Below the pieces are notes generated by a model. That model worked only from the letters and a program-made list of their open reading frames with translations, made no database searches and was not told the origin of the DNA. Made by a program: the position numbers and the translations under genes. A stretch of DNA of 50,783 bases, from the NCBI GenBank assembly GCA_002634385.1, contig NSJL01000027.1:1-50783 (forward strand), written 5' to 3'. Position 1 is the first letter of the stretch. Each line of letters opens with the position of its first letter. Source of the DNA: Nitrospira sp. (GTDB lineage Bacteria > Nitrospirota > Thermodesulfovibrionia > Thermodesulfovibrionales > Dissulfurispiraceae). Below are positions 1,578 through 21,917 of this stretch, piece after piece.

Positions 1578-1606
1578 TTGACATGAACCGGAATTCACTG
1601 TTTAAT
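1578..1606 (+). promoter_or_regulatory. Near-consensus sigma-70 promoter (TTGACA-17 nt-TTTAAT) upstream of the selenoprotein gene pair
   Basis: TTGACA at 1578-1583, 17-nt spacer, TTTAAT at 1601-1606, about 55 nt upstream of the ATG at 1662. Confidence 0.45.
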
Positions 1607-1661: not shown

Positions 1662-1868
1662 ATGGCTGAAAAGGTACTTATTTACGGAAAGGCCAGCTGA
1701 CCCTTTACCATGAGGGCAAGGTCTGCCTATGGGGATACTGCAGAGTACTTTGATGTTCTGCGTGACAAGGCCAGATTCAAGGAGATGCTCGCATATACAA
1801 AAGGAGTTTCCCAGGTGCCGGTGATCGTCGAAGGGGAAAAAGTAACCATAGGGTATGGTGGATCGTGA
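1662..1868 (+). CDS. Glutaredoxin/thioredoxin-fold selenoprotein (in-frame TGA 1698-1700 read as selenocysteine: YGKAS-U-PFT redox motif)
   Basis: ATG at 1662 preceded by GGGAGGTGG RBS. Codon 13 is TGA exactly where Grx-like proteins carry the first Cys of the CPYC motif (VLIYGKAS[U]PFTMRARS). Reading continues in frame 56 more codons to TGA at 1866-1868, with C-terminal VPVIVEGEKVTIGYGG Grx-like sequence. An fdhF-like hairpin with apical GGUC lies 19-23 nt after the UGA (GGCA-AGGUC-UGCC at 1715-1727). Confidence 0.6.
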
Positions 1869-1949
1869 GCCGTATGACCGGCCGATAGTTCATCGGCATA
1901 ATGACAGTCCGTTCCCTTTTCAGGGAAAAAGCAGAGGAGGGTTTACCGC

Positions 1950-2162
1950 ATGGGTTTAGAAGAGCGCATCAAGTCCCTTATCGCTGTCGGTGCTTCCGTG
2001 ACCTCAAACTGCCAGGAATGAGTGAAATACCACGCGGGCAGGGCCCGCGAAGCCGGAGTTGACGAACAGGACATCCTGGAAGCGATCGAAGTGGGCAAAT
2101 CCATAAGAACGGGGTCAGCGACCAGAATGGACCAGTTCCTTTCCAAAATGTTCAATACATAG
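1950..2162 (+). CDS. AhpD-like (carboxymuconolactone decarboxylase family) selenoprotein; in-frame TGA 2019-2021 within a C-x-x-U-x-x-x-H motif
   Basis: ATG at 1950 with GAGGAGG RBS. The sequence ...VTSNCQE[U]VKYHAGRA... matches the AhpD-core CxxCxxxH motif, with Sec replacing the second Cys. It continues in frame to TAG at 2160-2162. The perfect hairpin CGCGGGC-AGG-GCCCGCG (2033-2049) starts about 12 nt after the UGA. Confidence 0.6.
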
Positions 2163-2236: not shown

Positions 2237-2880
2237 TTAGACTGCCGCAAACATCTTTTCGAGCAGCACGAGGCACGCGTGCAGATCGGCTCCGGGACCG
2301 AGCACTCCCTTCCACAGGTCTCCCGTTTGTCCCACCCTTTTCATCGTCGTCTTCATGGTAAACCGCATGGGGTCGAGTTCTTCATTGACCTCGTCCCACT
2401 GCAGCGGTGCGCAGACCGGCGCACCTCTCCGGGGCCGTACGGAATACGGGGCAACCATGGTCTGCCCCCTGCGGTTCTGCAGGTAGTCGAGGTACACCTT
2501 GTGATACCGTTTGCAGGGAGTGCGCTCGATGCTGGTGGTGTCGGGCAGCCGGTAATTGACCAGCATGTTCACGATCTTTGCGAACTGCTGCACCTGCAGG
2601 TACTCATACTGCGCATCCAGGGGGACATAGACATGCAGGCCGGTGGCTCCCGAAGTCTTGCAGAAGCTGGCGGCTCCGGCACCTTCCAGGATCTCCCGCG
2701 TGACCGCCGCCGCCACGACGCTGCTGCTGAAATGACTCTCTTCAGTTCTTCGGTGTAGGTATCATGGTACCTCTCGGGAAGGAACACATCATCCAGCGCC
2801 CTCTCCTGCACCGCGTTATACATTTTTACCGGGATATTGATAAGCCCGAAACTGATTGTTCCCGACCAGATCACACGCAT
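2237..2880 (-). pseudogene. Decayed NHEJ remnant: Ku N-terminus (about 27 aa) fused to a partial, frameshifted LigD polymerase (PrimPol) domain
   Basis: Minus-strand ORF 2569..2880 begins MRVIWSGTISFGLINIPVKMY (canonical Ku N-terminus), then diverges. Overlapping ORF 2237..2716 in another frame carries the LigD PolDom hallmark SFCKTSGATGLHVYVPL and the C-terminal PLQWDEV...DPM.FT...DLW motifs. The frames switch near 2700-2720 and the total length is far short of an intact Ku or PolDom. Confidence 0.5.
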
Positions 2881-3827: not shown

Positions 3828-4586
3828 TCAGTCCCTCACTCCTCTGTCCCAATGACCCCTCACGTCTCCACACGCAATCCGGTGCTGTCCATAAAGCAGA
3901 CGGGGATAATCGGGAGGCAGCTCCCTGAGGGCATAAGGGACCCTGTCGAAGCGAACATGTATCCAGGGGCCGTCAAAATGTCTGGAGCGGTACCAGTGGC
4001 CCCGCACGGGACGCCACCAGAAACCATCATAGAATAAAAGCCTCCCTGCGCTATCGGGCACAGCATACACGTAGGTCCCGGGGATCAACACCACCGGAGG
4101 GGGCCCGGGCACCGCATACGGCGGAGGAGTCTCTTCATAGGCAAGGGGAGTCCCGTACCCTCCCCCTGTCCTCACTCCCTCGCACACCTCCCTGACCGTA
4201 TCCCGCACGAGGCGGCCGTTTTCCCATGTCCTTTCATGCACCTTTCTGCACTTCGTGTACCTATCCGGGTAATAAAAAGCGCCCACCGGCTCGGCCCGGT
4301 ACACGCCGCGACCGTTCCCGGTCGTGTATTCCACCGGTCTGTCCGTCCGGGCCGCTTCCTGCGAGCCGCGTACCGAGATATCCGCAAGGGTCGCCCCTGC
4401 TATGGCGCCGAGTCCTGCCCCGATCACCCCTCCGCGCCACGGGTTTTTGTGATCGAGCAGTGCCCCTGCTATGCCGCCGATGAGTCCCCCGGCAGCACCG
4501 CCCTCCCATTGCGGTGTCGCATATGCACTGCCTGCAAGCAAGAGGGAGATCATAGAGATGATTACCGCCTTCTTCCACCGAAACAT
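3828..4586 (-). CDS. Secreted hypothetical protein with N-terminal glycine-zipper region
   Basis: Signal peptide (MFRWKKAVIISMISLLLAGSAYA). Gly-zipper repeats (GGLIGGIAGALL..GGVIGAGLGAIAGA). AAAGGAGGA RBS 7 nt upstream of the ATG at 4586. Pro/Tyr/Trp/Arg-rich C-terminal half with no recognizable domain. Confidence 0.55.
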   Translation of the reverse strand: MFRWKKAVIISMISLLLAGSAYATPQWEGGAAGGLIGGIAGALLDHKNPWRGGVIGAGLGAIAGATLADISVRGSQEAARTDRPVEYTTGNGRGVYRAEPVGAFYYPDRYTKCRKVHERTWENGRLVRDTVREVCEGVRTGGGYGTPLAYEETPPPYAVPGPPPVVLIPGTYVYAVPDSAGRLLFYDGFWWRPVRGHWYRSRHFDGPWIHVRFDRVPYALRELPPDYPRLLYGQHRIACGDVRGHWDRGVRD

Positions 4587-5442: not shown

Positions 5443-6468
5443 TCAGGGACGATATTCCCTGGCTGTCTCAAGAAATATCTTAATATTCTCAATGGGAACT
5501 GAATGAGGCAGGTCACAGGCCGGCATTGCCATGTACCCTCCCCCTGATGCAGCACTGGATATACACGCGAGAACAGCATCTCTTACGACTTTGCTGTCCT
5601 TATCCATTAATACTGCTGTCGCGGAGACATTCCCTGCAAGAACACAATTCCCGTGGAAGGCCTCCTTGGCCTTTTTCATGTCCACCATGGCATCAAGGCT
5701 TATGCAATTGGCACCTGAAGTACTTACCAGGTCAAGCCTGTCGCTCATCTCACCGCACATATGCAGCAGGCTTTTTGTGCCGGTCGCTTTCAGCTCCGAA
5801 AAAACGGTTTTCAAGGGCGGCAACCCCAGTTCTCCAAACCGCGCCCTTGAAATAAGACTTGCAGAACTCAACGAATCAGCCATTGAAATCATCTGAATAG
5901 TAGTATCGTCAATTAAGGGTTTATAGAAACGGAGCACCATCTTTGCGGCAAACTCGGCAACGGCCTTCACCAGGTCCTTGTTTTTGTGGATAGCTCTCAT
6001 AAGTTGTTCTATGCCGCAGAGTTGGCCTGCCAAAATGAAAGGGCCCCATGTTGTCGTCGTCACGACATACTTATTCCCCACATTCTTTGAGACGATCCTC
6101 GTTGCCTCTCTGATGTTGTTGAGAACAGGGTCGGTATCTATTCTCGACAGGTCAAGTTTTTCAAGATCAGAGATAGATCCTACTATCGGTTCCACGTCAG
6201 GCGCCCCCACCTTCCTGTAGGTGATGGGCGCCCCCAATGCTGCTACCAAACAGTTATTCAGCCCTGATCCTACATAAACGATATCAGATTGCAGGATGTC
6301 GGCCATTTCTGTTTGAATTTCTGCCATCCGTACGGGATTCCTTACCAACTTTTCCGGCTCTTCGCCGTAGTAACTGTAAGTCCAGACCCCTCCTCCGAAG
6401 ATCGAGGAGGGCATCCTATCGGTCTTCACAAAATCATAGGCCGAGAAAACAATCTCTTTTCCGTTCAT
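5443..6468 (-). CDS. Uroporphyrinogen decarboxylase (URO-D) family methyltransferase, MtaA/MtbA/O-demethylase MT-I-like (divergent paralog)
   Basis: 341 aa from the ATG at 6468 (GGAGGTGAGA RBS). URO-D/MtaA family architecture. Last gene of the long minus-strand cluster. Confidence 0.6.
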   Translation of the reverse strand: MNGKEIVFSAYDFVKTDRMPSSIFGGGVWTYSYYGEEPEKLVRNPVRMAEIQTEMADILQSDIVYVGSGLNNCLVAALGAPITYRKVGAPDVEPIVGSISDLEKLDLSRIDTDPVLNNIREATRIVSKNVGNKYVVTTTTWGPFILAGQLCGIEQLMRAIHKNKDLVKAVAEFAAKMVLRFYKPLIDDTTIQMISMADSLSSASLISRARFGELGLPPLKTVFSELKATGTKSLLHMCGEMSDRLDLVSTSGANCISLDAMVDMKKAKEAFHGNCVLAGNVSATAVLMDKDSKVVRDAVLACISSAASGGGYMAMPACDLPHSVPIENIKIFLETAREYRP

Positions 6469-6519
6469 GGTCTCACCTCCATGCAAGAGTCTTCACATAG
6501 GAAATGCATTCGCGGTTCA

Positions 6520-8205
6520 TTATGCAGCCGGCCCCAGGATAGCCTTGAGGTCTGCATCAGGTGTGGTAATGGCCATTACGTTGAAGTTTTTGATAAGCAC
6601 TCCCAGCACCCCCGGACTTATGAAGGCCGGCAATGACGGACCAATACGGATGCCCTGGATCCCGAGGTGGAAAAGCGAAAGCAGGACGGCCACGGCCTTC
6701 TGCTCGTTCCACGAGAGGACCATGGAAAGGGGGAGATCGTTTACTCCCACGCTAAAGGCCTTTGCAAGGGCGACTGCTATCTGAATAGAAGAGTAGGCGT
6801 CGTTGCACTGGCCTACGTCCAGGAGCCTCGGGATGCCGCCGATATCGCCCAGCTTCTTGTCGAAGAAGCGGAACTTGCCGCATGCCAGAGTCAGCACAAC
6901 GCAGTCCTTGGGCACTTTTTCGACGAAATCAGAGTAATAATGCCTTCCCTTTGTTCCACTGTCGCAGCCGGCAACAAGAAAGAAATGCCGAATACTCTTG
7001 TTCTTCACCGCCTCTATTACCGTGTCGGCAGCACTGAGGATCGCATTCCTTGCCGCACCGGTCAGCACAGAGCCCAGGTCCTCATCTTTCAAAAAGCCGG
7101 GCAGGGAAAGGGCCTTCTTTATAACGGGGGCAAAATCATTCTTTGTGATATACTGTATGCCGGAACTCCCAACAACGCCCGTCGTAAATACCTTGTCTTT
7201 GTAGGAATCGAGGGGCTTCTGGAAGCAGTTGGTGGACAGGACGATAGCTCCGGGAAACTGCTCAAACTCCTTGTTCTGGTTATGCCAGGCTGTCCCGTAA
7301 TGGCCGTAAAAGTGAGCGTATTTCTTCAGGCCGGGATAGCCGTGGGTGGGGAGCATCTCTCCATGCGTGTAGACATATATTCCCTTTCCCTCGCTCTGTT
7401 TGAGTATCTCTTCAAGTTCCTTAAGGTCATGTCCGGAAACGAGAATAGCCTTTCCTTTCTTGCGCCCAAGGGGTACCGTGGTAAAGACGGGATCACCGTA
7501 AGTGCCGGTGTTGCCTTTATCGAGCAACTCCATCGCCCGTATGTTTATTTCTCCGCATTTCAGGGCCAGCCCTACCCAGGCATCCAGGGAGAGATCCTTC
7601 CTGGTCATGGACGCCAGCATTTCGTGGAAAAAGGAATATATGGCGTCGTCGGTCCGTCCCAGGGTCCGGGCATGGCCAGTGTACGCTGCCACGCCTTTTA
7701 AGCCGAACAGCGTAGTACTCCGCAGGGATAGGACGTCAGGGTCCAAAGAATCGGGATTGCCGGGTCGATGTACCTGACCTTGCCAGGGCAGGACGCCATC
7801 ACTCGAAAAGAGGCCAAGGTTTTGAGCCTGCTTGAGCATTCCCTCGCGGCTTTTTTCTGGCAGGAAATTCGCCGGACCCTCCGCAAACGCGGTTTTCAGA
7901 CTCGCGGCCCGCAGCTTTTGTATCAGGCCGTCCTTGAGCTCGGCGCACCTTTTTATACATGAAACAAAAAAGTCAGGGTTGAAATTGACATTTGTAGCCG
8001 TTGAGAAAAGCGCATCCACCGTGTATTCATCCACTTCCCTGTCGGTTATCCCGGCTTTCCTGCCCTCAAGCGCAACCACCGAAAGTCCCTGCAGCGAATA
8101 GACAAGCAGATCCTGAAGATCTGATACTTCCGGAGTTTTTCCGCAGGCCCCGGTCGTCGTGCATCCCGTTCCATTTGCTGCTTTTTCACATTGATAGCAA
8201 AACAT
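6520..8205 (-). CDS. hcp: Hybrid cluster protein / hydroxylamine reductase
   Basis: Starts MFCYQCEKAANGTGCTTTGACGKT (canonical Hcp N-terminal Cys cluster). 561 aa, matching Hcp length. Confidence 0.85.
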   Translation of the reverse strand: MFCYQCEKAANGTGCTTTGACGKTPEVSDLQDLLVYSLQGLSVVALEGRKAGITDREVDEYTVDALFSTATNVNFNPDFFVSCIKRCAELKDGLIQKLRAASLKTAFAEGPANFLPEKSREGMLKQAQNLGLFSSDGVLPWQGQVHRPGNPDSLDPDVLSLRSTTLFGLKGVAAYTGHARTLGRTDDAIYSFFHEMLASMTRKDLSLDAWVGLALKCGEINIRAMELLDKGNTGTYGDPVFTTVPLGRKKGKAILVSGHDLKELEEILKQSEGKGIYVYTHGEMLPTHGYPGLKKYAHFYGHYGTAWHNQNKEFEQFPGAIVLSTNCFQKPLDSYKDKVFTTGVVGSSGIQYITKNDFAPVIKKALSLPGFLKDEDLGSVLTGAARNAILSAADTVIEAVKNKSIRHFFLVAGCDSGTKGRHYYSDFVEKVPKDCVVLTLACGKFRFFDKKLGDIGGIPRLLDVGQCNDAYSSIQIAVALAKAFSVGVNDLPLSMVLSWNEQKAVAVLLSLFHLGIQGIRIGPSLPAFISPGVLGVLIKNFNVMAITTPDADLKAILGPAA

Positions 8206-8397
8206 TTTATTTCCTCCCGATACCCTTTGTTATCTGCAGGCTGAGCAGATTAGGAAAGGGAAAGTTACGCTTTGTACAGTGTGAACATAGTCACTTCAAT
8301 TGAGGTGATTATGCTCACACAGGCTCATTTTTGAGCCTTCACCTTCATTACCTACTGTTGCCGATTCCCTTCGACGCTCGGACCCTTAACGCTTTCC

Positions 8398-9468
8398 TTA
8401 GTAAGCTCCATACAGGGCAGCCGCCTTCACGAGGGCCTTTATGTTCTCGGGCGGAACGTCGTGGTGAATTTCACATCCGGCCGATAATAGATATCCCCCT
8501 CCCGGCATACCGATCTCCAGGCATTTCTTCGCTTCTGCCATTACCTGCTCAGGGGTTCCGAACATGAGGGCCGCATTCGCCTTTGACACGCCGACGTTCC
8601 CTGCAATAGCCACCTGTTTCCCGTATTTCTCTTTTGCCCATTTCAGGTCGACCGAGTCGTGAAAAGCAACGCATATCGGCTGGATTTCATTGACGATCAA
8701 ATCCAGGAATGGAGTAGCGTTTTCACACTGATGGTAAATATACGGGGCCCTTATGGCGTCACGGATTTTTCTGTGGTAAGGGACGACGAACTCGGCATAC
8801 TGAGGCACGCTGACCGCCTCATCAACCATCCCGCCCTCAACAGTCGCTATTGCAATGGCCCCCGCTTCGAGCATGGCCTTGGCAAAAGCGATCGATGTCT
8901 GGGTGCAGAGCTCAAGCAGGTCATGGATAAAAGACGAATTTTTAGCCATCTCCACATAAAGCCGCTTATAACGGCCTTCGAGAACATCCGCCACCGTATC
9001 CGGAGGTCCGTTCACGAACCCCACGATGGGCACATCGGGATAGTTCTTCTTCAGTTTCCTGATCACGTCCAGGATGACCGGCATCCTTCCGGCCTTGGTG
9101 GGATCGGGGACTGAAAGTTTGGCAAGATCCGCAGGGGTCTTGACGGCCCATTCGCTGACCACGCCCATGCGCATACCGCCGCCGCACTTGAGCATGTAAT
9201 CCAACTTCGAGCCCAAGGCCTCGCCCTCGACCCGGAAATCCACGGGCAGGAAGAAGTTATCAGCCCCGTACACCGTATACTGCTTCTCTATCGACTGATA
9301 GAGCTTTCTCGGATGGCTAAGCCCTTCCTTCCACGTATAGTCCAGATCCACGAAGTCATGCTGGGCGGCACTCTGAAAATAAAGGGCGACGGGTACCCGG
9401 TCCGGTGTTTTAAACGTAAGGGCTGCAACAACACGTTCTAACGGAGTCATTGTGGACATTGTTCTCAC
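8398..9468 (-). CDS. URO-D family methylcobamide/corrinoid methyltransferase (MtaA/CmuA/O-demethylase MT-I-like)
   Basis: 356 aa, typical MtaA-family length and pattern. Starts 7 nt downstream of the corrinoid-protein gene. Confidence 0.7.
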   Translation of the reverse strand: MRTMSTMTPLERVVAALTFKTPDRVPVALYFQSAAQHDFVDLDYTWKEGLSHPRKLYQSIEKQYTVYGADNFFLPVDFRVEGEALGSKLDYMLKCGGGMRMGVVSEWAVKTPADLAKLSVPDPTKAGRMPVILDVIRKLKKNYPDVPIVGFVNGPPDTVADVLEGRYKRLYVEMAKNSSFIHDLLELCTQTSIAFAKAMLEAGAIAIATVEGGMVDEAVSVPQYAEFVVPYHRKIRDAIRAPYIYHQCENATPFLDLIVNEIQPICVAFHDSVDLKWAKEKYGKQVAIAGNVGVSKANAALMFGTPEQVMAEAKKCLEIGMPGGGYLLSAGCEIHHDVPPENIKALVKAAALYGAY

Positions 9469-9475
9469 CTCCTCC

Positions 9476-10114
9476 TTATTTTTCCACTGCGGATTCTACC
9501 CACTTCAGGGCTTCCTTTTCATTGTCACCATAAAAATCAGCCCCTATCTTCTTGCAAAACTCCCAGGAGATCGGTCCTCCGCCGACGCCCACCTTGATCT
9601 TGTCCCGGAGGCCTTCTTCCACGAGTCCCTCCAGGGTCCGCTTCATACTGAGCATCGTCGGCGTCATGAGGGTAGAGAGCATCAGAAAGTCGGGCTTCTC
9701 CTCAGCCACCTTCTCAAGATAATCCTCGATGGGCACGTCACGTCCCATGTCTATACAGGCAAACCCATTTGCCTCCAGCACTATCCTTACGAGGTTCTTG
9801 CCGATGTCATGGACGTCGCCTTCGACAACGCCGATCAGTACCTTGCCTTTCCCTGCCGTTTCGACCTTCATCTTTGACTTCAGGATATTGAAGGCTTCAT
9901 AGAAGGCTTCGGAGCTGAGGAGCATCTGGGGTAGATAGTACTCCTTCTTATCATACTTTTCGCTGACTATTGCCATAGCCGGGATCATACCCTTTTCTGT
10001 TATGATCATCGGGTCGATATTGTCAGCCAAGCCCTGTCTGGCCAGCCTTCCCGCTTCGTCAATGTCGCCTACAACGATGGCGTGGTTAAGGTCTTCGAAA
10101 ATTTTTTCAGACAT
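9476..10114 (-). CDS. Corrinoid (B12-binding) protein of methyltransferase systems (MtaC/MtbC/OdmA-like)
   Basis: 212 aa with an N-terminal helical cap domain. Rossmann B12-binding domain with the DxHxxG motif (GDVHDIGKN) and S.L....M signature. Confidence 0.85.
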   Translation of the reverse strand: MSEKIFEDLNHAIVVGDIDEAGRLARQGLADNIDPMIITEKGMIPAMAIVSEKYDKKEYYLPQMLLSSEAFYEAFNILKSKMKVETAGKGKVLIGVVEGDVHDIGKNLVRIVLEANGFACIDMGRDVPIEDYLEKVAEEKPDFLMLSTLMTPTMLSMKRTLEGLVEEGLRDKIKVGVGGGPISWEFCKKIGADFYGDNEKEALKWVESAVEK

Positions 10115-10153
10115 TGTGTACCTCCACCTTAGTAAAAAAGGTTTATACAGCTA

Positions 10154-10966
10154 TCACGCCTCTGCCTTGTCTTCTTTCACCTTTACATTGCCACTCCTTT
10201 CTCTTTTAGTGAGCAGGCTTTTGGCCTGTTCAAATGTGCGCTCAAGAATGTTGAGCGTCCCCTTGGTTTCGTCCACATAAAACCCGAAGGTATCCGCGAA
10301 CTTTTTCGTTTCGGCGCTGAGCGTCTCGCGGTCTCCGATTCCCGTGTCAACCATCAGTACCCGCTTATAAGCCGCTTTCTTAAAGATCCATTTGACCGTG
10401 GCGATATCCGGACAGTGAAGTTCCTTTAGCAGCAGCGTATCAGAGTGCTTAAGCCAGCCGGGAGTCACAAACCATGTGCCCGCCTCACGACGGACCTGAT
10501 CCAGGTATTTTTCGGTCCCTCCCAGCACCAGGCACACGCAGTCATCGATCGTACTGCCATCTTTATTCTGCAGCAGTACGATAGGGCAACGGAGATCGAC
10601 CAATTGTTTTTCGATATCGAGGAGTCCATTGCCGCAAAGTCCGTAGCCCAGCACGAGGACGTCACTCTTCTCAGCCAGAATCCTGGCCTGCTCTGCAACC
10701 CCCTCTCTCAGCATAGTCTTGTCCATGTGAAGAGCGACGCGAAGCACCGCAGCCAGAACCTCGAAAGAGAGTGCCGAGTCCGGCAGAAACTCAGCTGCAT
10801 CCTTTATCCTTTTCAGCCTGTTGCCCAGCAACCCATGCAGGGACGCAATGCTGTCTGTCGCAGGACCGCTCTCGACGAAAGTGACTTTCCCGATATCAGG
10901 ATCATGGGAAAGCATATGCGCCATCTCATCTTCGAAAATTTCGCACGTTAAGAGCCCGATTACCAT
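10154..10966 (-). CDS. DUF1638-domain protein (accessory protein commonly adjacent to corrinoid methyltransferase genes)
   Basis: Start placed at the ATG at 10966 (MVIGLLTCEIF..), with a GGAGAGAGGAGGA RBS-like tract upstream. Family assignment is from overall pattern and gene context. Confidence 0.5.
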   Translation of the reverse strand: MVIGLLTCEIFEDEMAHMLSHDPDIGKVTFVESGPATDSIASLHGLLGNRLKRIKDAAEFLPDSALSFEVLAAVLRVALHMDKTMLREGVAEQARILAEKSDVLVLGYGLCGNGLLDIEKQLVDLRCPIVLLQNKDGSTIDDCVCLVLGGTEKYLDQVRREAGTWFVTPGWLKHSDTLLLKELHCPDIATVKWIFKKAAYKRVLMVDTGIGDRETLSAETKKFADTFGFYVDETKGTLNILERTFEQAKSLLTKRERSGNVKVKEDKAEA

Positions 10967-10983
10967 GGCATCCTCCTCTCTCC

Positions 10984-12618
10984 TCACCCCGCAACCTTGA
11001 CGGACTCAAACAACAGACCGTTAGGGCATTCCGCTTCACAACGCCGGCAAGCGGTGCCGTTACAAAGGTCGGAGCGGATTACAATGCGTTCATTCTCACC
11101 CACCCTCTCGATGCGGGCGGCGGCCTCCGGACATTCATTGAGACATTTGCGGCAATTATCACCCAGGCACCCCCCTGCAGGGAAATCAAGAGAGAGTTCG
11201 GTGCCCACGCTGTCCACGACAGTCAGTCCCATAGGACCGATTTCGATGATGTCCCGCTTTGAGATGTGAATCAACTCCGGCGACGGGTGCGGCTGAGGAA
11301 ATTCCTGAATGCCATAGAGAGCGAGCATGCCATTCATCATATGCATCGGCATTCCTTCATCCCAATAGGCCAACTCACAGACATAGGCATTCTTAAATAC
11401 CTTTGAATCTGCGAACATGATGTGCTTGGCGGTGATCGTATCGGCCACTTTCTGGAGCATGTCCAGGAGCTCCGGACGTCTGACGATTTCAGTGGCAAGA
11501 CACAGGCTCGTGTTCCCTGCCTGTATTATCCTGCCTGCCGAGTTAGGAATCAGGCCGACTTTCCGGGCCTTTAAGGGGTCCACGTATGTGCCCGAGGCCC
11601 CTGTCATGTACACAGCGTCCAGTTTCGGCAGTTTTATGCCGACCTCTTCCACGAGTGTCATGTGCCCGGCCCGTATGGCGCCGATAGCCTTCCCCGCCTC
11701 TCGCACATCTTTCTCTGTCAGGTAGATCCCTTCGGTCATGTGCAGTTTTCCGTCGGCAGTACTGATCTTTGGCGGGCCTACCAACCCCGCATCGATCCCT
11801 TCGGCAATCGCGGCGACAACACCCGTGCCGGTAATCCCTTTCGGCTGGCAGTTCGGGGCGCCCTGCAGAACAATCACACCGTCCTTGACCCGGATGCTCG
11901 AACCGGAACGTGCGATGAGATCTGAATTGAGCACACGAATGTCCCAGACTCCGTCGCCGGAGACTAAGTCCGCAATGGCGCCCGGCTGAGCCAACATGCC
12001 GCAGGAGACGTGCTGTCCTTCCATGGCAGGGCCTGCTGCTGCCGAACCCGTCAGTATGTCACCGCCGACCTTGATGGCCATTTCCGCGTTGGTACCATAA
12101 TCTGTGACGATAGCCACCTCATCCTTATCAAGGAGGCCGGTGATATACATCATCGCCAGGGCATCCGCACCGATTTCATGCCTGACTGCCGGCGGCACAA
12201 GGAGTTCCGCCTTGTCGGGCAACTCCAGTCCGATATCGGCAGCCCGGATGACACGGGCAGGCCGCTTGACCGCCTCCGTGATTCCCAGCTTTTTGAGTCC
12301 CCGCTTGCCCGCAAAGGCCAGATCCCTGATTTCCATCCTTTGGAAGAGAGAAAGCTGGATGGGATTTCCGCAGATCGCCACACGCCCCACCTCTTTAAGG
12401 TCGATCGGGAGGGCACGGATGACCTTGTGCACCGCATTGAGAATCAACTTGTGAGTAATGTCATATCCCATTTCAAGACAGAAGTGAAGATGGTCCATAA
12501 CATTTGCCCCCGGCAGAGGGTGGCGGGTCGATATCGCGGTGGCGATGACCCTGCCATCCTCATCAATAGCCTGGGCCCGGAACCCGCTCGTCCCCAAATC
12601 TATTGACAGGCTTTTCAT
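10984..12618 (-). CDS. ramA: RamA-type reductive activase of corrinoid enzymes (ASKHA-fold ATPase with C-terminal 2x[4Fe-4S] ferredoxin domain)
   Basis: 544 aa. N-terminal sugar-kinase/Hsp70-like fold (MKSLSIDLGTSGFRA). C-terminal Cys clusters (CLGDNCRKCLNECP, CNGTACRRCEAECP). Confidence 0.75.
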   Translation of the reverse strand: MKSLSIDLGTSGFRAQAIDEDGRVIATAISTRHPLPGANVMDHLHFCLEMGYDITHKLILNAVHKVIRALPIDLKEVGRVAICGNPIQLSLFQRMEIRDLAFAGKRGLKKLGITEAVKRPARVIRAADIGLELPDKAELLVPPAVRHEIGADALAMMYITGLLDKDEVAIVTDYGTNAEMAIKVGGDILTGSAAAGPAMEGQHVSCGMLAQPGAIADLVSGDGVWDIRVLNSDLIARSGSSIRVKDGVIVLQGAPNCQPKGITGTGVVAAIAEGIDAGLVGPPKISTADGKLHMTEGIYLTEKDVREAGKAIGAIRAGHMTLVEEVGIKLPKLDAVYMTGASGTYVDPLKARKVGLIPNSAGRIIQAGNTSLCLATEIVRRPELLDMLQKVADTITAKHIMFADSKVFKNAYVCELAYWDEGMPMHMMNGMLALYGIQEFPQPHPSPELIHISKRDIIEIGPMGLTVVDSVGTELSLDFPAGGCLGDNCRKCLNECPEAAARIERVGENERIVIRSDLCNGTACRRCEAECPNGLLFESVKVAG

Positions 12619-12622
12619 AGTT

Positions 12623-13672
12623 TTAAACCCATACCTTCCTGAAGCCGTGTTTCTTACCGGTTTCGACCATGGTCTGCAGGTTTATCGTCGAGGTCTGCGG
12701 GGGTATTCCACAGCAGGTTGTGAGGACGTCAGTCCCCTTCTCAATGCACTCTATGACGGCTTGCTTGACTTCTTCCGGCTCCCCGAACAGCAGGACCCCG
12801 TTCACATTAATATTTCCACACATGGCGGTGTTTTCTCCCACCGTCTGTTTGGCATAAGCCATATTTACCATGGAGTCAACCGAGATACCCGGCGCCACCT
12901 CCGCCATCCTCGTCAGAAGCAGGTCGTTCTTCCCGCAGATGTGAAGGATTGTGGGCACTGAAATGTTTTCGGTGATGCTCCGGGAGTAGGGCTTGGCAAA
13001 TTCGTCAAACTGTTTTGGACTGATCAGATCGCAGCTGGCAGTGGCATCAACGATCACTACAACATCCGCCCCTGCCTCGACCTGGGCCTGGGCATACTTC
13101 ACGCAGACCTTCTGAGCCCTCTCAATGAGCTCCTTGGTAACGGCAGGCTTCCTCATAATTTCGCGCATGAAGGGGTCTACCCCCCTGACCTGAGCCGCTA
13201 CCATGAAGGGTCCCACGACCATCGAGAGGACGGGTATGGTATCGGGAACCCTCTTTTTGAGGAGCTTGATCGCTTCGAGGACCACCGGCATCCTGCCGTC
13301 TTTATAAGGGTCGGGGTCCTTCACCCTGCTGAAGTCGCCCGTTTCGGACACGGGGGGTTCCTTCACCGGGGGTTGTATATCCAGGCCCTTGTTGCGCCCT
13401 GCGTGATACTCCAGCTCGCATCCCATGGCTTCGGCTTCTATATTGATATCGAAGGGGACACGAACGCTCTCAAAGCCGATGACCCGATGTGCCTCATACG
13501 ACAGGGTAGCCATGAGTTCCGCGTTGGAATGCACTTCCGGCCAGAAAGCCCCGCATGATTTCATCAACTCTATCGTTCCCGTATGCAACGGCTGCGCTAC
13601 CGGTATGCGGTCTACGGGTTGATGGGCCAGGGTGGCAAAAAGTCTTTCCTTCGGAGACATGGTTTCTTTCAT
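12623..13672 (-). CDS. URO-D family corrinoid methyltransferase (MtaA-like paralog)
   Basis: Start at the ATG at 13672 (MKETMSPKERLFATL) with an AAGGAGGA RBS. 349 aa. Ends 4 nt before ramA. Confidence 0.7.
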   Translation of the reverse strand: MKETMSPKERLFATLAHQPVDRIPVAQPLHTGTIELMKSCGAFWPEVHSNAELMATLSYEAHRVIGFESVRVPFDINIEAEAMGCELEYHAGRNKGLDIQPPVKEPPVSETGDFSRVKDPDPYKDGRMPVVLEAIKLLKKRVPDTIPVLSMVVGPFMVAAQVRGVDPFMREIMRKPAVTKELIERAQKVCVKYAQAQVEAGADVVVIVDATASCDLISPKQFDEFAKPYSRSITENISVPTILHICGKNDLLLTRMAEVAPGISVDSMVNMAYAKQTVGENTAMCGNINVNGVLLFGEPEEVKQAVIECIEKGTDVLTTCCGIPPQTSTINLQTMVETGKKHGFRKVWV

Positions 13673-13778
13673 GAAATCCTCCTTTTCGGGGTTCTTGCTT
13701 CTCTCCCTAAGATGAAGCATTGAGAGGACCCTTCTTGTGTTGTGGTTAAGCATTCCTGATTGATCAGCAAAAAAATGA

Positions 13779-15395
13779 TCACTCTTTTTCCTCTGTCCTG
13801 CACATTCCAAAATCGTATGCACCTGTTCCCGGAGGCATTCCCGGCATAAGATTGACGGTGCCGGTCAAGGCACAAAAATACCCCGCACCGGTAAACGGCA
13901 CAAAATCAACGATTGGCAGTGTATATTTTCCGGGCACATTTTTTATCCGCGAGTCGTGGGAAAGGGACAGATGGGTTTTTGCGATGCACGGACCGCAATT
14001 CTGACGGCTTGAATGAAGAGCCTCCTGTCTTTCCATCCCTGTCAGGATCCCGGATGCCCGGGAAGATTGTGTTATCCCCTGCGCACCGTATATCGTGGAG
14101 GCAACTTTCGCTATTTTCTCTTCCGTGGAAAGAGAATCATCATAAAGCCTGCGGAAGCTGAAGCGCCTGTGGGTAGCCTCCACCACTGTTTCAGCGAGTT
14201 CGTCTCCCCCCCTGCTTCCCTTCTGCCATCCCCTGTGTGCAACGGCGAAATCGGCGCCGAGATCAAGTGCGGTCTTTGCAATCTTTCTTATTTCTTCATC
14301 GTGATCAAAGGAAAACCTGTTGACGGCAACGACCAGCGGAAAGCCGAAGATCTTAACGTTCCGAATATGTCTTTCGAGGTTCTTCATTCCCGCCATCAGG
14401 GCGGCGTCATTCCTTCCTGCCCATTCGCTTTCTTCAGAAACCCGGCCCCTGTCCAACGTGCTGAGACCGTGCATCTTGAGAGCCCTGGCCGTTACCACCA
14501 GGACGACGGCATTGGGCAGCCTCTGAAGCACGGGGGCTTTGATAGCCATGAATTTCTCAAAACCCGTATCCGTACCGCCTCCGCCTTCGGTAACAACGAA
14601 ATCGGCTGTCCTCAGCGCCACTTCGTCAGCCATGACGGAACAGTTGCCGTGGCTGATGTTGGAGAAAGGTCCGCAGTGGAGAATGACCGGGGTGTTTTCC
14701 GAAGAAAGAACAAGATTAGGCAGAAGGGCCTTCCGGAGGATCCGTATCAGATCCGATTCTATCCTGATAGCGGACATCAGGACCGGATTGCCGGCCTCGT
14801 CAAAGCCCAGCGTTATTCTTGATAGCCTCTCTCTCACCTCTTCATGGGTTCTGGAGAGGGAGAGGATTGCCATGAGCTCCGACGCCTGGGTCATGATAAA
14901 GCCGCTCCTCAGGGATCTGTCACATAGGTCAATAGCCCTGTTCCAGAAAATCCTCTCTTCATCCAGGCCAGGCGGATTCCCCCAGAAAAAGAGGTTATCC
15001 ATATGGGCTGCAACAAGATTGTGGGCCATGGTGACTGCGTGCGTGTCTCCGGTACAGTGAAAATCGATTTCCTCCTGAGGAAGAAGCCTTGCTTTGCCCC
15101 CTCCGGAGCCGCCGCCCTTGCGGGCAAAGTAGAGGCCCATCGAGGGTTGTCTCAATGTGGCTATCGAGCTGCTGCCTCTCCTATTAAGGGCCATGCTCAG
15201 CGTTATTGCCGTAACCGTTTTCCCTTCTCCTCTGTAAGTGGGGGTCATCGCGGTTACAAAGATATATTTGCCGCCGGGCCTTCTCGGCAGTCTTTCGGAC
15301 ACTTCGGGAGAAATCTTGGCCATAGACTTCCCGTAAGGATCGATTTCCTTCTTTTGAAACCCGAACCGTGCGGCGATGGGAAGAATGGATCGCAT
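13779..15395 (-). CDS. fhs: Formate--tetrahydrofolate ligase (formyl-THF synthetase)
   Basis: 538 aa. P-loop TPTYRGEGKTVTAITL. FTHFS C-terminal pattern (GAGYFCALTGTVNLMPGMP). Confidence 0.85.
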   Translation of the reverse strand: MRSILPIAARFGFQKKEIDPYGKSMAKISPEVSERLPRRPGGKYIFVTAMTPTYRGEGKTVTAITLSMALNRRGSSSIATLRQPSMGLYFARKGGGSGGGKARLLPQEEIDFHCTGDTHAVTMAHNLVAAHMDNLFFWGNPPGLDEERIFWNRAIDLCDRSLRSGFIMTQASELMAILSLSRTHEEVRERLSRITLGFDEAGNPVLMSAIRIESDLIRILRKALLPNLVLSSENTPVILHCGPFSNISHGNCSVMADEVALRTADFVVTEGGGGTDTGFEKFMAIKAPVLQRLPNAVVLVVTARALKMHGLSTLDRGRVSEESEWAGRNDAALMAGMKNLERHIRNVKIFGFPLVVAVNRFSFDHDEEIRKIAKTALDLGADFAVAHRGWQKGSRGGDELAETVVEATHRRFSFRRLYDDSLSTEEKIAKVASTIYGAQGITQSSRASGILTGMERQEALHSSRQNCGPCIAKTHLSLSHDSRIKNVPGKYTLPIVDFVPFTGAGYFCALTGTVNLMPGMPPGTGAYDFGMCRTEEKE

Positions 15396-16432
15396 CAGCC
15401 CGTGATTCTCCCGTTGGCCTTCACTGTTTCAACCATGATACGCATATTTTCTGCGGGAATTTCAGGCCACAGGTCACAACCGGGCCATACTGCGCTCACT
15501 CCGTCCTCAAGTGCTCTCAGTACCTCCTTCTCGACATCCTCGGGGCTCCCCAGACAAAGTATCTGGTAAGTATCGAGATTCCCGAAGATGAGGGCATCCT
15601 TTCCGAGAAGCTGCCTCGCTTTGCTTACCTCTGTCTTCTTTTCTACGCTTATCGCGTCGCCTTTTGCGTTTGCCATATCTCCCACAATCGGATTCGTGTT
15701 GCCGCAGATATGGAGCACCTTGTGCATCGGTATTCCCGCCATAATTCTGTCCAGATGCGGTTTCACGAGGGATCGGAACATTCTCGGACTCAGGACATCG
15801 GTGCTGGCGCCCATCTCTCGTATGGTTATGTAGTCGGCTCCGGCATTCCTGTATACGTCGGCCACTGCAATGATAAGGTCTGCAAACAAGCCAAGGACCT
15901 CATTCACGGTCTCCGCATTCTTGAAAGCCTGCTTCAGGAGCCCTTCCAGGTCCATCACCTGCCCTGCCAGAAGAAAAGGGCCCAGTACATAAGTGCCTAC
16001 AGCTACTTCTTCACCTATTTCTTTTTTCAGTATCCGTATCGCTTCGGTGATAACGGGAAGCCTTCCCTTTTCCGCAAGGTTCCCCGGAATCTTTATGTCC
16101 GCCGGCCCCTTGACAATCTTGTCCTTTATCGTCGGATACAGGATTCCGTCCCGATGGGAATAGGTATTCATCGTGCAGCCCAGAATTTCAGCCTCAACCG
16201 CAATGTCGTACGGGACGACGGCGCATTCAAGGCCGAAGAGCCTGTACGTAGAGGAAGAAGTCGCTGCCATCAGCTTCGGATCGGTGTGGACTTCAGAGAA
16301 AGGTATGCTGCTTTCTTTCAGTCCGTGGACAGTCACATTTCCCATACCGCTAAAGACCGGGACACGGTCGATCTCCTCCTTTCTGAATAGCCTGAGCACT
16401 CTCTCCCTGGGGCTGTACTTTTCTCCCGTCAT
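15395..16432 (-). CDS. URO-D family corrinoid methyltransferase (MtaA/CmuA-like paralog)
   Basis: 345 aa. The stop overlaps the fhs start by 1 nt (translational coupling). Confidence 0.7.
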   Translation of the reverse strand: MTGEKYSPRERVLRLFRKEEIDRVPVFSGMGNVTVHGLKESSIPFSEVHTDPKLMAATSSSTYRLFGLECAVVPYDIAVEAEILGCTMNTYSHRDGILYPTIKDKIVKGPADIKIPGNLAEKGRLPVITEAIRILKKEIGEEVAVGTYVLGPFLLAGQVMDLEGLLKQAFKNAETVNEVLGLFADLIIAVADVYRNAGADYITIREMGASTDVLSPRMFRSLVKPHLDRIMAGIPMHKVLHICGNTNPIVGDMANAKGDAISVEKKTEVSKARQLLGKDALIFGNLDTYQILCLGSPEDVEKEVLRALEDGVSAVWPGCDLWPEIPAENMRIMVETVKANGRITG

Positions 16433-16504
16433 TTATTCCTCCTTAACCATGGTTCCCGCTTTCCAGGTTGTGTATGCAAAGTGGAAACATTTTGCATACA
16501 CAAC

Positions 16505-17311
16505 CTATAGTCTTCCCTCTTTGTACGCGGCCAGATACGCAGCACAGTCCCTATCTCTTCCAAGCATCGTTTGTGCTGCCACAATAGTAGCCATGAGTTC
16601 TCTGTCGAGCGGGTTGAGGAGGACCGCGTCAAGGTCTGAAGCCATCAGCATCGCCTGGAGAGTCCTCGTCGCGAGCGAGCGCTTCGGGAGATTCCATGTA
16701 CTGGCGCTGACATTCACCATGGTCTTCACCTGGGGGAGCTCCTTCTTTATCAGCCTGAGGGACTCGAGGGAGGTGAGAGATTGCCTGTACCAGTTCGGCG
16801 CACTCACCGGGAGGCACATGAAATCGATATAAAGCAGAGAAAGATCGATTCCATACCTGTCAACCGTTTCAGCAAGTCTTTTCGCTATTTCGAGCCTTCC
16901 TTCCGCATGATCAGGCATCCCCCCCTCCTCATCGATCGTTACACCGACAACTTTGCACCCCATCTCTTTTACAAAAGGGAGTATTCCATTGATCCTGTGC
17001 TTCTGCAGGGTTATAGAGTTGGCGATGCAGCTCTTTACCTCCCTGCATCGGCGCAGGCCCGCCTCGATCGCCTTCGGATGAATACTGTCCACCGCGAGGG
17101 GAATATCGGTCACTTCCTGGACAATATCGACGGCCCATTCAAGCCTCTGGACATTGTTTTCAAGCTTCAGCCCCGCATTGACATCGATTATGTCCGCTCC
17201 TGCCTCGACCTGCTTCGTGGCTTCCTCCTGAATCACCCTGGCATTCTTCTCCTCATACGCCTTCTCGATATACTTGATCGATGTGTTGATCCTCTCTGCA
17301 ATTACTTCCAT
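16505..17311 (-). CDS. Pterin-binding methyltetrahydrofolate:corrinoid methyltransferase (MtrH/AcsE/MT-II-like, DHPS-like TIM barrel)
   Basis: 268 aa with a pterin-binding-domain pattern (ERINTS...DIIDVNAG...). Confidence 0.7.
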   Translation of the reverse strand: MEVIAERINTSIKYIEKAYEEKNARVIQEEATKQVEAGADIIDVNAGLKLENNVQRLEWAVDIVQEVTDIPLAVDSIHPKAIEAGLRRCREVKSCIANSITLQKHRINGILPFVKEMGCKVVGVTIDEEGGMPDHAEGRLEIAKRLAETVDRYGIDLSLLYIDFMCLPVSAPNWYRQSLTSLESLRLIKKELPQVKTMVNVSASTWNLPKRSLATRTLQAMLMASDLDAVLLNPLDRELMATIVAAQTMLGRDRDCAAYLAAYKEGRL

Positions 17312-17336
17312 TGTCCCTCCTGTTTCAAATCGATTA

Positions 17337-18203
17337 TTAAAATCCAGCCTTATCCAGAACGAGGGGCACTTTGTCCTCCCAGTGAATGGTATAGATATGA
17401 ACCCCCCGGGATAGATCCCGTAAATCCCTGATCAGACGGGCTGCTATTTCGATACTTGTGTCCACGGGATCGGTGCTCTTTTCAAATGCATCGAGTATGA
17501 ACTTCGGAATAGTAATCCCGGGGATATTCTTGTTCATGAAATGTGCCATCTTCGCGGATTTGAGCAGAAAGACGCCCACAAGGACAGGCACGGATAAATG
17601 CCTAGTTTTTTCAACGAAACCGGCAAACATCTCGATGTCGAAAACAGGTTGGGTCTGAAAGAAATCGGCACCTGCCGCAACTTTCTTCTCCATTTTCATT
17701 ATCTGAAGTTCCAGCGGAGCGGATGACGGGTTCACCGCCGCTCCCAGGCAAAAGGACGGAGAGCCCTTGAGGCGATTGCCCGCCATATCCGTACCGTCCT
17801 CCAGCCCTCGGGCCGCTTTCAAGAGCTGAACCGATTCAATATCGAACACTCCCTTTGCGCCGGGATGGTCCCCCAGGGACTGGTGGTCTCCGGAAAGGAC
17901 GAGGACGTTATTTATTCCCAGGGCTGAAGCGCCTAACAGATCGGATTGCAGGGCCAGCCTGTTCCTGTCCCTGCATACCATCTGAAGTATCGGTTCAAGT
18001 CCCTCTTCTTTTATCAGGAAGGAGGCGGCAAGGGAGCTGAGGCTCATGACGGCGCTCTGATTGTCCGCCGCATTTACGCCGTCGACCCTTCCCCGCAGGG
18101 GATGGAGTATCTTCAACTCTTCTCTTATATCCGTCCCCTTAGGCGGGAGAAAATCCGTTGTAATGACAAATCTTCCTGACTTTAATGCTTCCCTCAATGC
18201 CAT
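17337..18203 (-). CDS. metF: 5,10-methylenetetrahydrofolate reductase family protein (MetF-like, paralog 1)
   Basis: 288 aa, MTHFR-family TIM barrel pattern (FVITTDFLPPKG...VCRDRNR...). Separated by 1 nt from paralog 2. Confidence 0.7.
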   Translation of the reverse strand: MALREALKSGRFVITTDFLPPKGTDIREELKILHPLRGRVDGVNAADNQSAVMSLSSLAASFLIKEEGLEPILQMVCRDRNRLALQSDLLGASALGINNVLVLSGDHQSLGDHPGAKGVFDIESVQLLKAARGLEDGTDMAGNRLKGSPSFCLGAAVNPSSAPLELQIMKMEKKVAAGADFFQTQPVFDIEMFAGFVEKTRHLSVPVLVGVFLLKSAKMAHFMNKNIPGITIPKFILDAFEKSTDPVDTSIEIAARLIRDLRDLSRGVHIYTIHWEDKVPLVLDKAGF

Positions 18204-18204
18204 G

Positions 18205-19107
18205 TTACCCTACGGCTCCTGCGGTGCGGTTTTTTCTTCCCGTAATTTCTGCTTCGTCCAGGATGCGGGGAATCCGGTCGTGCCACGGCGTGGTCATCAT
18301 GAGGTGAACCCCGGAGCAGACAGCCGCGAGTTCCCTTACAAGCCTGACGGTTATATCGATGCTTCTCTTCTCAACATCTCCTTTTTCGAGCTCCTGTAGT
18401 ATCGATTCAGGAATATGCACACCCGCGACGTTTTTATTCATGAAGCGCGCGGAGGCTGCAGATTTCAGAATGAATACCCCTGCAAAAACCGGGATATCAA
18501 GAAAGGCCACCCCCTCCAGGAACCGGACATATCTATCGACGTCAAAGATGGGCTGAGTCTGCAGAAATTCGGCTCCTGCCTCAGCTTTGAGACGCGCCTT
18601 CCCGATCTCTTCCTGAGGTTTTGCCGCGCCGGGGTCGAGGACAGCGCCGAGACAGAAATTCGGTATGCCGTCAAGGCGCTTTCCACCCATGTCAAAGCCC
18701 TTCTCGAGATTCCTCGCTGCCGCCAGCAGCTGGACAGAGTCAAAGTCGAAGACCGGTTTTGTGCCCGGATTGTCCGAATCCGTCGCCTCGTCACCTCTCA
18801 GACAGAGAATGTTCCTCACTCCCAACGCATAGGCGCTCAGAAGCTCTGACTGCAGACTGATCCTGTTTCTGTCGCGACAGGTGATCTGCATTATGGGCTC
18901 TATCCCCATCTCTCTTATCTTCACGCAGGCCGCGAGGGCGCCCATCCTCATATTCGCCCCGGGCATATCAGCGACATTTATCGCATCAACCCTCCCCTTC
19001 AAAAGCTCGATACCTTTTACCGTTTTGTATACAGCTGTGCCTTTCGGCGGGATTACGTCTGTCGTTACAACAAACTCTCCGGATCTCAGCTTTTCCTTGA
19101 ATGTCAT
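18205..19107 (-). CDS. metF: 5,10-methylenetetrahydrofolate reductase family protein (MetF-like, paralog 2)
   Basis: Start at the ATG at 19107 (MTFKEKLRSGEFVVTTDVIPPKG) with a GAGGTGG RBS. Same family as the adjacent gene. Confidence 0.7.
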   Translation of the reverse strand: MTFKEKLRSGEFVVTTDVIPPKGTAVYKTVKGIELLKGRVDAINVADMPGANMRMGALAACVKIREMGIEPIMQITCRDRNRISLQSELLSAYALGVRNILCLRGDEATDSDNPGTKPVFDFDSVQLLAAARNLEKGFDMGGKRLDGIPNFCLGAVLDPGAAKPQEEIGKARLKAEAGAEFLQTQPIFDVDRYVRFLEGVAFLDIPVFAGVFILKSAASARFMNKNVAGVHIPESILQELEKGDVEKRSIDITVRLVRELAAVCSGVHLMMTTPWHDRIPRILDEAEITGRKNRTAGAVG

Positions 19108-19118
19108 CTTTCCACCTC

Positions 19119-19991: not shown

Positions 19992-20005
19992 TTTTTTCTC
20001 CGCTC

Positions 20006-20563: not shown

Positions 20564-20575
20564 CCGGCTTTCCCC

Positions 20576-21904: not shown

Positions 21905-21917
21905 GCTGAAACCGTTC

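Follow-up and report, generated by a model that had tools for sequence, protein, structure and literature searches.

The stretch of DNA analysed here, 50,783 nucleotides of contig NSJL01000027.1 (hereafter "the window", which always means this whole stretch), very probably contains at positions 1662-1877 of the forward strand a real gene for a glutaredoxin-like protein with two selenocysteine (Sec, U) residues, each UGA being accompanied by a hairpin of its own. The full coding sequence gives a protein of 71 amino acids, MAEKVLIYGKAS-U-PFT...GYGGS-U-AV-stop, which is assigned to UXX-star selenoprotein family 1. The family, both of its Sec residues and its motifs have already been catalogued, and the gene of the window is an ordinary member which does not represent a new kind of system. 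Any future interest lies in the biochemical role of the family.

On direct reading of the sequence, the start codon ATG 1662-1664 is preceded at a distance of 7 nt by a GGAGG ribosome-binding site (1650-1654). The frame is translated as MAEKVLIYGKAS and then meets an in-frame TGA at 1698-1700, which is codon 13, in the context YGKAS-TGA-PFT. A first-pass annotation of this DNA had described this start, its strong ribosome-binding site and the in-frame TGA, and all three are confirmed. After the TGA 55 codons remain open, PFTMRARSAYGDTAEYFDVLRDKARFKEMLAYTKGVSQVPVIVEGEKVTIGYGGS, up to the TGA at 1866-1868; the open frame was correctly noticed in that annotation, and only its length (56 codons) has to be corrected. 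The end of the gene, which had been placed at 1868, is not retained. The DNA from 1866 reads TGA GCC GTA TGA, that is U-A-V-stop, TGA 1866-1868 being the second Sec codon and TGA 1875-1877, two codons past Sec69, the true stop. The first Sec codon (1698-1700, U13) opens the redox motif of the glutaredoxin fold, which here reads UPFT, and the second (1866-1868, U69) encodes the third residue from the C-terminus. One Sec residue and one selenocysteine insertion sequence (SECIS) element had been proposed before; these correspond to U13 and its hairpin, while U69 and the hairpin at 1881-1897 were overlooked. The gene is missed by the six-frame track, as had been pointed out: mechanical listing of the open reading frames (ORFs) of this region returns a 52-aa piece at 1710-1868 alone. 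In the GenBank record JAIOIV010000017.1 (assembly GCA_019912415.1), of which the window is the reverse strand, the gene is likewise annotated as a 52-aa hypothetical protein, the second Sec codon being taken for a stop.

The identity of the protein was established by profile searches in which U of the read-through protein was written as C. The NCBIfam model NF041114 ("UXX-star selenoprotein family 1") is matched with 98.2 bits at an equivalog cut-off of 72, residues 5-71 covering positions 1-70 of the 70-position profile. Removal of the last three residues (the 68-aa version) lowers the score to 90.4 bits and leaves three end positions of the profile unmatched, and the annotated 52-aa fragment reaches only 63.1 bits. 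Since the addition of U-A-V makes the match to NF041114 run from end to end, the gene is delimited as 1662-1877, with 71 amino acids including Sec13 and Sec69. The tail U-x-x-stop that characterizes the family is found here as TGA 1866-1868, GCC GTA and TGA 1875-1877, and the N-terminal UxxT motif as U13-P-F-T16, with two Sec residues per protein. In a 2026 review of the prokaryotic selenoproteome (PMC13188914) the family is listed with "UxxT, 2" Sec and also under the name "Distant Grx-like protein 1".

The glutaredoxin fold is supported by the Pfam Glutaredoxin model PF00462 (29.3 bits at a cut-off of 22.9), in which residues 5-59 are aligned with positions 1-57 of 60, across the first TGA. 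Weak sequence matches to the solved glutaredoxins 7c12 and 3ic4 (E about 4e-3) are also obtained. The protein differs from classical glutaredoxins in several respects. Position 16 is Thr, the second Cys of the dithiol CxxC motif being absent; the chain ends four residues after GG, with none of the classical C-terminal helices that complete the glutathione site; and classical glutaredoxin equivalog models score far below their cut-offs (TIGR02181, 24.8 against 90; TIGR02196, 21.4 against 88.55). Of the CPYC-type motif suggested in the first-pass annotation, Sec at the first position is upheld; the motif itself is UPFT (UxxT) and is not a CxxC dithiol.

Relatives of the gene were collected by a genome scan with one genome per species, which gave 458 relatives, of which the best 80 were fetched. 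Codon tallies refer to the 74 parsable loci, comprising 73 species genomes and the window. The relatives are mostly metagenome-assembled genomes (MAGs) of Nitrospirota/Thermodesulfovibrionales and Desulfobacterota/Syntrophobacterales, and the closest among the species genomes, locus L001, is 87% identical. Codon 13 is TGA in 66 of the 74 loci, TGC or TGT in seven and TAA in one (L052, in which a pseudogene or a sequencing error is possible). Codon 69 is TGA in 71 loci and TGG in one (L045); in the two remaining loci, L065 and L073, which carry a CPFC motif, the TGA stands further on in a longer tail ending ...FGGT-U-x-x, and these probably represent another UXX-star subfamily. The third codon after site 2 is TGA in 36, TAA in 27 and TAG in nine loci, i.e., a stop in 72 of 74. 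The two residues between site 2 and this stop are conserved in kind (G/A, then V/I/L).

The residues after site 1 are PYT, PFT, PHT or PFS in 72 of the 74 loci, the second CxxC position thus being Thr or Ser, and PFC occurs only in the two extended-tail variants. The C-terminal Sec is retained even where site 1 is Cys, and Cys at the C-terminal site is found in none of the loci. The alignment with Cys homologues, which had been recommended as a control, gives Cys at site 1 in seven loci. The 12 codons upstream of TGA 1698 show conservation at the protein level, with M1, I7 and G9 invariant, and Met at codon 17, with which the 52-aa ORF would begin, is confined to the closest relatives. The alignment across the TGA to PF00462, the match to NF041114, the Cys/TGA distribution at site 1 (7 and 66 loci) and the covarying hairpin described below bear out the earlier proposal that the gene encodes a selenoprotein of glutaredoxin fold in which Sec takes the first position of the active site.

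SECIS hairpin 1 (1708-1732, forward strand) lies within the coding sequence. Its conserved core (1714-1728) is a 5-bp stem with the loop AGGUC (1719-1723): GGCA (1715-1718) pairs with UGCC (1724-1727), and the G-U pair 1714/1728 extends this stem. The GGCA/UGCC stem with the AGGUC loop 3' of the UGA (1715-1727) had been recognized in the first-pass annotation and is present as described. A lower stem, CCAU/AUGG (1708-1711/1729-1732), is also present in the sequence of the window. With 5+4 bp the hairpin has an energy of -10.0 kcal/mol, and 18 nt separate the UGA from the loop, which starts at +19. As a family feature the lower stem was rejected; it is not conserved across the family and is found in this lineage only. 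The earlier comparison of this hairpin with the apical region of the E. coli fdhF element concerns the upper stem and the GGUC loop, and in the family only the 5-bp core and the loop are conserved.

The core of hairpin 1 is built from codons 18-23. Codon 18 contributes its last base to the stem, which is completed by two Ala codons, the third base of a Ser codon and the initial base of a Tyr codon; the loop AGGUC is supplied by the Arg codon AGG together with bases one and two of the Ser codon. Downstream of the first UGA the family consensus reads CCN UAY ACN NNN NNR GCC AGG UCG GCY UAY GG. Across the family 95% of the cells of this stem are paired, and 36 changes on both sides of a pair are counted, compared with 9.9 +/- 2.4 after shuffling (0 of 500 shuffles reach this number). 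These compensatory changes fall at synonymous codon positions, and controls with slid partners collapse. The pair formed by the third bases of the Ala and Ser codons is CG in 40, UA in 15 and AU in three homologues, with two exceptions, and the next pair outward is GC in 33, AU in 13, UA in four, GU in four and CG in one. Among 66 homologues the loop begins at +19 in 49 and has the sequence AGGUC in 45.

SECIS hairpin 2 (1881-1897, forward strand), GCCGAU-AGUUC-AUCGGC with the loop at 1887-1891, has 6 bp, a spacing of 18 nt and an energy of -8.6 kcal/mol. Because only two sense codons follow U69, the whole hairpin falls downstream of the stop codon. Its sequence varies widely between species, but pairing is kept in 88% of the cells across the family and every one of the six pairs shows compensation. 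Changes on both sides amount to 108 cells, compared with 39 +/- 6 in shuffles (reached in 0 of 500), and slid-partner controls are far lower; RNAalifold independently recovers the same helix. In 67 of 71 homologues the stem has 5 bp or more and G is present in the first two positions of the loop; in 61 the loop starts at +18 to +20.

Published limits for bacterial SECIS elements (bSECIS) are a loop of 3-9 nt, an upper stem of 4-16 bp, a distance of 16-37 nt between UGA and loop and a minimum free energy (MFE) of -7.5 kcal/mol or lower, together with G in the first two loop positions, usually as G[G/U] (PMC13188914). Three hairpins of the window, the two described above and that of an adjacent AhpD-like gene discussed below, all fall within these limits (-10.0, -8.6 and -13.9 kcal/mol). 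A hairpin whose G-containing loop starts 18-20 nt downstream follows 33 of the 1706 TGA trinucleotides of the window (1.9%, a figure that is only indicative, the definition of the hairpin having been written after the data were seen). All three candidate Sec codons, 1698, 1866 and 2019, have such a hairpin, with the loop exactly at +19. This placement of a G-bearing apical loop is typical of bacterial SECIS elements to which SelB binds.

The other sites of the window that combine a TGA with a hairpin were checked for in-frame coding potential, and none is selenoprotein-like. A separate observation concerns the 252-aa glycine-zipper-like ORF at 3828-4586 (reverse strand): beyond its TGA stop (3828-3830) there is a 7-bp hairpin at +20, and the frame stays open for another 88 sense codons. 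This hairpin is probably of the terminator type and not a SECIS element, the downstream translation not being protein-like.

Decoding of the gene probably proceeds as in established bacterial Sec insertion: SelB carrying Sec-tRNA(Sec) would bind the loop of each hairpin and deliver Sec at the UGA located about 19 nt upstream. The UGA at 1875, 9 nt past the Sec UGA at 1866 and nearer to hairpin 2, has no hairpin at +19 and would for this reason be read as a stop. In the resulting protein Sec13, which occupies the position of the nucleophilic Cys of glutaredoxins, could act as the attacking selenolate, and Sec69, carried on a flexible tail with the conserved GG as its hinge, could by analogy serve as the resolving partner. 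The two residues would then form a reversible intramolecular selenenyl-selenide or else chelate a soft metal or metalloid. In glutaredoxins the conserved GG borders the active site, and the "semi-conserved" Cys sits after this motif. In many of them this C-terminal Cys and the Cys of the active site are joined in an intramolecular disulfide (PMC9854632). The resolving-partner model is drawn from the presence of a single nucleophile with a second chalcogen close behind GG, as in these glutaredoxins. Redox chemistry is further supported by the combination of Thr or Ser at the second CxxC position in 72 of 74 loci with a C-terminal Sec that is kept.

It is suggested, tentatively and as one joint reading, that Sec13 and Sec69 constitute a natural diselenide redox couple of very low potential in a protein of 71 residues, and that the Ala-Arg-Ser-Ala sequence of codons 19-22 could be held largely by the RNA (the SECIS stem and the AGGUC loop) and not by the needs of the protein. 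This sequence is near-invariant in Sec forms and relaxes to RA, LS or KA in Cys forms. No experimental demonstration of the diselenide couple or of the RNA-held Ala-Arg-Ser-Ala in this family appears in the available literature.

Several observations weigh against the interpretation given above. Two of the five pairs of stem 1 follow automatically from the two Ala codons, and the RNA evidence for hairpin 1 therefore rests on two covarying pairs. The fold of a 66-nt segment (1695-1760) is no stabler than its shuffles (z = +0.55) and its MFE structure is a competing pairing, so that fold stability alone cannot support hairpin 1; comparative evidence was sought for this reason. The loop-closing pair is kept in 4 of 7 Cys forms compared with 58 of 60 Sec forms, a contrast which is modest in this small sample (Fisher p = 0.007). 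An Rfam scan of the whole window at gathering thresholds returned one tRNA-Met and no SECIS family. Neither selA, selB and selD nor tRNA-Sec was found in the 50.8-kb window (ARAGORN, Rfam and Pfam scans of 40 window ORFs), and the decoding machinery is inferred rather than seen, since this search covered the window only. No widely shared neighbour gene occurs among the 80 related loci. As regards the chemistry, the proximity of residues 13 and 69 is taken from general knowledge of the glutaredoxin fold, and the review of the prokaryotic selenoproteome treats metal binding by the family as equally possible (PMC13188914).

Other explanations of the same DNA were weighed against the two-Sec gene. 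A 68-aa protein with Sec13 only, for which TGA 1866-1868 is the genuine stop, would agree with the fact that TGA can legitimately end genes of this genome (12 of 31 do so) and with the score of this version above the NF041114 cut-off. It is nevertheless very unlikely: a stop stands two codons past this TGA in nearly all loci, with intervening residues conserved in kind; a fully compensated hairpin lies at SECIS distance from TGA 1866; the NF041114 profile covers U-x-x, the inclusion of which raises the score by 8 bits; and the family is catalogued with two Sec (PMC13188914). Conservation of the 12 upstream codons, which align as protein to the first strand of the glutaredoxin profile, makes it highly improbable that no Sec is encoded at all and that a 12-codon leader, or nothing, precedes an independent 52-aa ORF (1710-1868) with its own ATG, as in GenBank. 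Met at codon 17 is absent in most homologues, seven homologues have Cys in place of the TGA, the 52-aa fragment stays under the family cut-off of 72, and position 1710 lacks a ribosome-binding site, whereas GGAGG precedes 1662. In favour of the independent ORF are the deposited record, which calls exactly this 52-aa gene, similar 52-aa calls in databases, and the Sec machinery not seen in the 50.8-kb window. The possibility of a 12-codon leader plus a separate ORF, raised in the first-pass annotation, is thereby set aside.

A genome-wide reassignment of UGA to Trp or Gly (code 4 or 25), which would make both sites ordinary sense codons, could explain the many database homologues with W at both positions. 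Its probability is practically negligible. TGA terminates 12 of the 31 Pfam-supported window genes with complete matches, from which it follows that UGA is a normal stop and that the genome is not recoded. Homologues without TGA have Cys at the aligned residue and not Trp or Gly, a position-specific hairpin follows each of the TGAs in question, compared with only 1.9% of all those in the window, and the W calls come from short metagenomic contigs for which the gene caller picked an alternative code. A further explanation accepts the two-Sec gene as described and touches its biochemical role only, not the gene model: the selenols could ligate a soft metal or metalloid (Hg, As or Cu), and the protein would be a chaperone or sensor instead of a redox couple. 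This role is possible, though we would not call it probable. The Sec residues of UXX-star proteins may be metal-binding ligands according to PMC13188914, a gene read as an ArsR-type helix-turn-helix (HTH) protein lies upstream in six of the closest relatives, an operator-like palindrome covers a promoter-like site both here and in L001, and the C-terminal Sec is never Cys. On the other side, the window has no adjacent metal-resistance genes, the neighbour is a redox protein of the AhpD-like peroxidase type, and the neighbourhoods of the family are heterogeneous.

Downstream of the two-Sec gene lies a second selenoprotein gene of the AhpD/CMD family (1950-2162, forward strand, 70 aa), with a GGAGG ribosome-binding site at 1936-1940 and Sec24 (TGA 2019-2021) in a C-Q-E-U motif. 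The protein matches Pfam CMD PF02627 with E = 3.2e-13 and TIGR00778 with 34.9 bits at a cut-off of 27.8; on the GSU3128 (seleno)protein family model it scores 33.3, below the cut-off of 110. Cys homologues (P0040-P0046) have NCQPC or NCLSC where the window has NCQE-TGA. A SECIS-like hairpin, CGCGGGC-AGG-GCCCGCG (2033-2049, forward strand), has 7 bp, -13.9 kcal/mol and its loop at +19. This Cys/Sec pair with a hairpin of the same geometry means that Sec decoding is implied three times within 330 nt, and these three events are the best available substitute for seeing the Sec machinery. Only the last 46 aa of this gene are annotated in GenBank (K8I29_02285), as a hypothetical protein. The two genes probably share a transcript, and the adjacency of the selenoprotein and an AhpD-like gene recurs in L003 and L030.

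Upstream of the gene a promoter-like site is read at 1578-1606 (forward strand), with TTGACA (1578-1583), a spacer of 17 nt and TTTAAT (1601-1606), and the closest homologue L001 has a matching layout (TTGACA, 17 nt, TTTACT). A consensus promoter scanner did not list the 1578-1606 site, the second hexamer having no A at position 2. Between this site and the ribosome-binding site there is an imperfect inverted repeat of 21+21 nt (1602-1643), with arms that are 76% complementary and not separated by a gap. Its core, ATGAGC-N4-GCTCAT (1606-1621), forms a palindrome found upstream of L001 as well, and the repeat, which overlaps the promoter-like site, may be a candidate operator.

Among the 80 loci the neighbours include an ArsR-type regulator in six, a PAS/histidine kinase in 13 and an ECF sigma/anti-sigma pair in eight, these labels being assigned by reading the sequences. 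The ArsR-type HTH gene lies 5' of the gene in L001, L002, L003, L030, L073 and L080 and is not found in the window. Since the neighbourhoods are not conserved, the operon context gives no functional pointer.

Elsewhere in the window a long block of genes on the reverse strand (5443-23507) encodes four URO-D/MtaA-like methyltransferase paralogues, a B12-binding protein, DUF1638, a RACo corrinoid activase, formate-tetrahydrofolate ligase, a pterin-binding protein, two MTHFR-like genes, a hybrid-cluster protein, a bacterial microcompartment (BMC) shell protein, an RnfC/Nuo51-like flavoprotein and an aldehyde dehydrogenase. This block looks like a corrinoid-dependent methyl-transfer pathway beside microcompartment genes. 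At 2237-2880 (reverse strand) an ORF with a LigD primase-polymerase domain (159 aa) overlaps an ORF of 103 aa that resembles Ku only over about its first 30 residues; the two ORFs are apparently what is left of a non-homologous end-joining pair. The record JAIOIV010000017.1 is a MAG labelled "Alphaproteobacteria bacterium". This label looks doubtful: the gene has its closest relatives in MAGs of Thermodesulfovibrionales/Nitrospirota, and anaerobic C1 metabolism is encoded in the window.

A search of protein databases gave 38 relatives, which form three groups: W-translated forms, 52-aa truncations and a few forms with Cys at site 1, which end just short of site 2. The W-translated relatives, which are code 4/25 gene calls, have W at both sites (GK.GWP[YF]T ... 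GYGG[ST]WGV). Among the homologues P0001-P0027 many are translated with code 4/25 and carry Trp at both Sec positions, and some of these entries overrun the real stop when it is TGA (e.g., P0006, P0008 and P0013). Entries with Trp at the Sec positions are a systematic annotation artefact of short metagenomic contigs.

The finding corrects the annotation of the deposited record, in which two selenoprotein genes are reduced to hypothetical proteins of 52 and 46 aa, and many database entries of the family are similarly truncated at the first TGA or wrongly show Trp at both. The gene is also a teaching case: within 216 nt there are two Sec codons, each with its own hairpin at an equal spacing of 19 nt, one hairpin being written in codons and the other lying past the stop. 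In the family this stop is itself often UGA, at a distance of only 9 nt from the Sec UGA, and it illustrates how strictly the meaning of a UGA depends on spacing.

Among known systems, the SECIS element of E. coli fdhF resembles hairpin 1 in its small GC-rich upper stem and in a GGUC-containing loop about 19-20 nt after the UGA. Where fdhF has UGCA-GGUC-UGCA, the window has GGCA-AGGUC-UGCC, with a loop of 5 nt instead of 4 and with GGUC one nucleotide further from the UGA, and the bulged U of fdhF has no counterpart. Unlike in fdhF, the long lower stem is not conserved in UXX-star family 1, and the second element of the window gene lies outside the coding sequence. In this last respect the gene could be compared with mammalian thioredoxin reductase, which ends in Gly-Cys-Sec-Gly-stop: in both, Sec is near the C-terminus on a flexible Gly-rich tail and the SECIS element is necessarily located after the stop. 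The mammalian enzyme is a large flavoenzyme in which the redox partner of Sec is the adjacent Cys, and its eukaryotic SECIS element lies far downstream and acts with SBP2 and EFSec.

The neighbouring gene shares with AhpD-like CxxU selenoproteins (pfam02627; GOS table, PMC2398784) the CMD/AhpD domain and Sec at the second CxxC position; it differs from them in being short (70 aa) and in falling below the cut-off of the GSU3128 family. The selenoprotein glutaredoxin of Clostridium oremlandii and other UxxC Sec-glutaredoxins (PMC13188914) likewise have a glutaredoxin fold with Sec at the first active-site position. Their motif is UxxC, they contain one Sec and they are full-length glutaredoxins with C-terminal helices, whereas the protein of the window has UxxT and a second Sec and ends three residues after the GG motif, with Sec in this tail. 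ScGrx5, EcGrx4 and AtGRXS16 (PMC9854632) are similar in having a single active-site nucleophile and a second chalcogen close behind GG. These are CGFS proteins of about 100 aa or longer that use Cys and bind Fe-S clusters with glutathione; the protein of the window has Sec at both positions and the motif UP[YF]T, and its second chalcogen stands one residue further from GG (GG-S/T-U).

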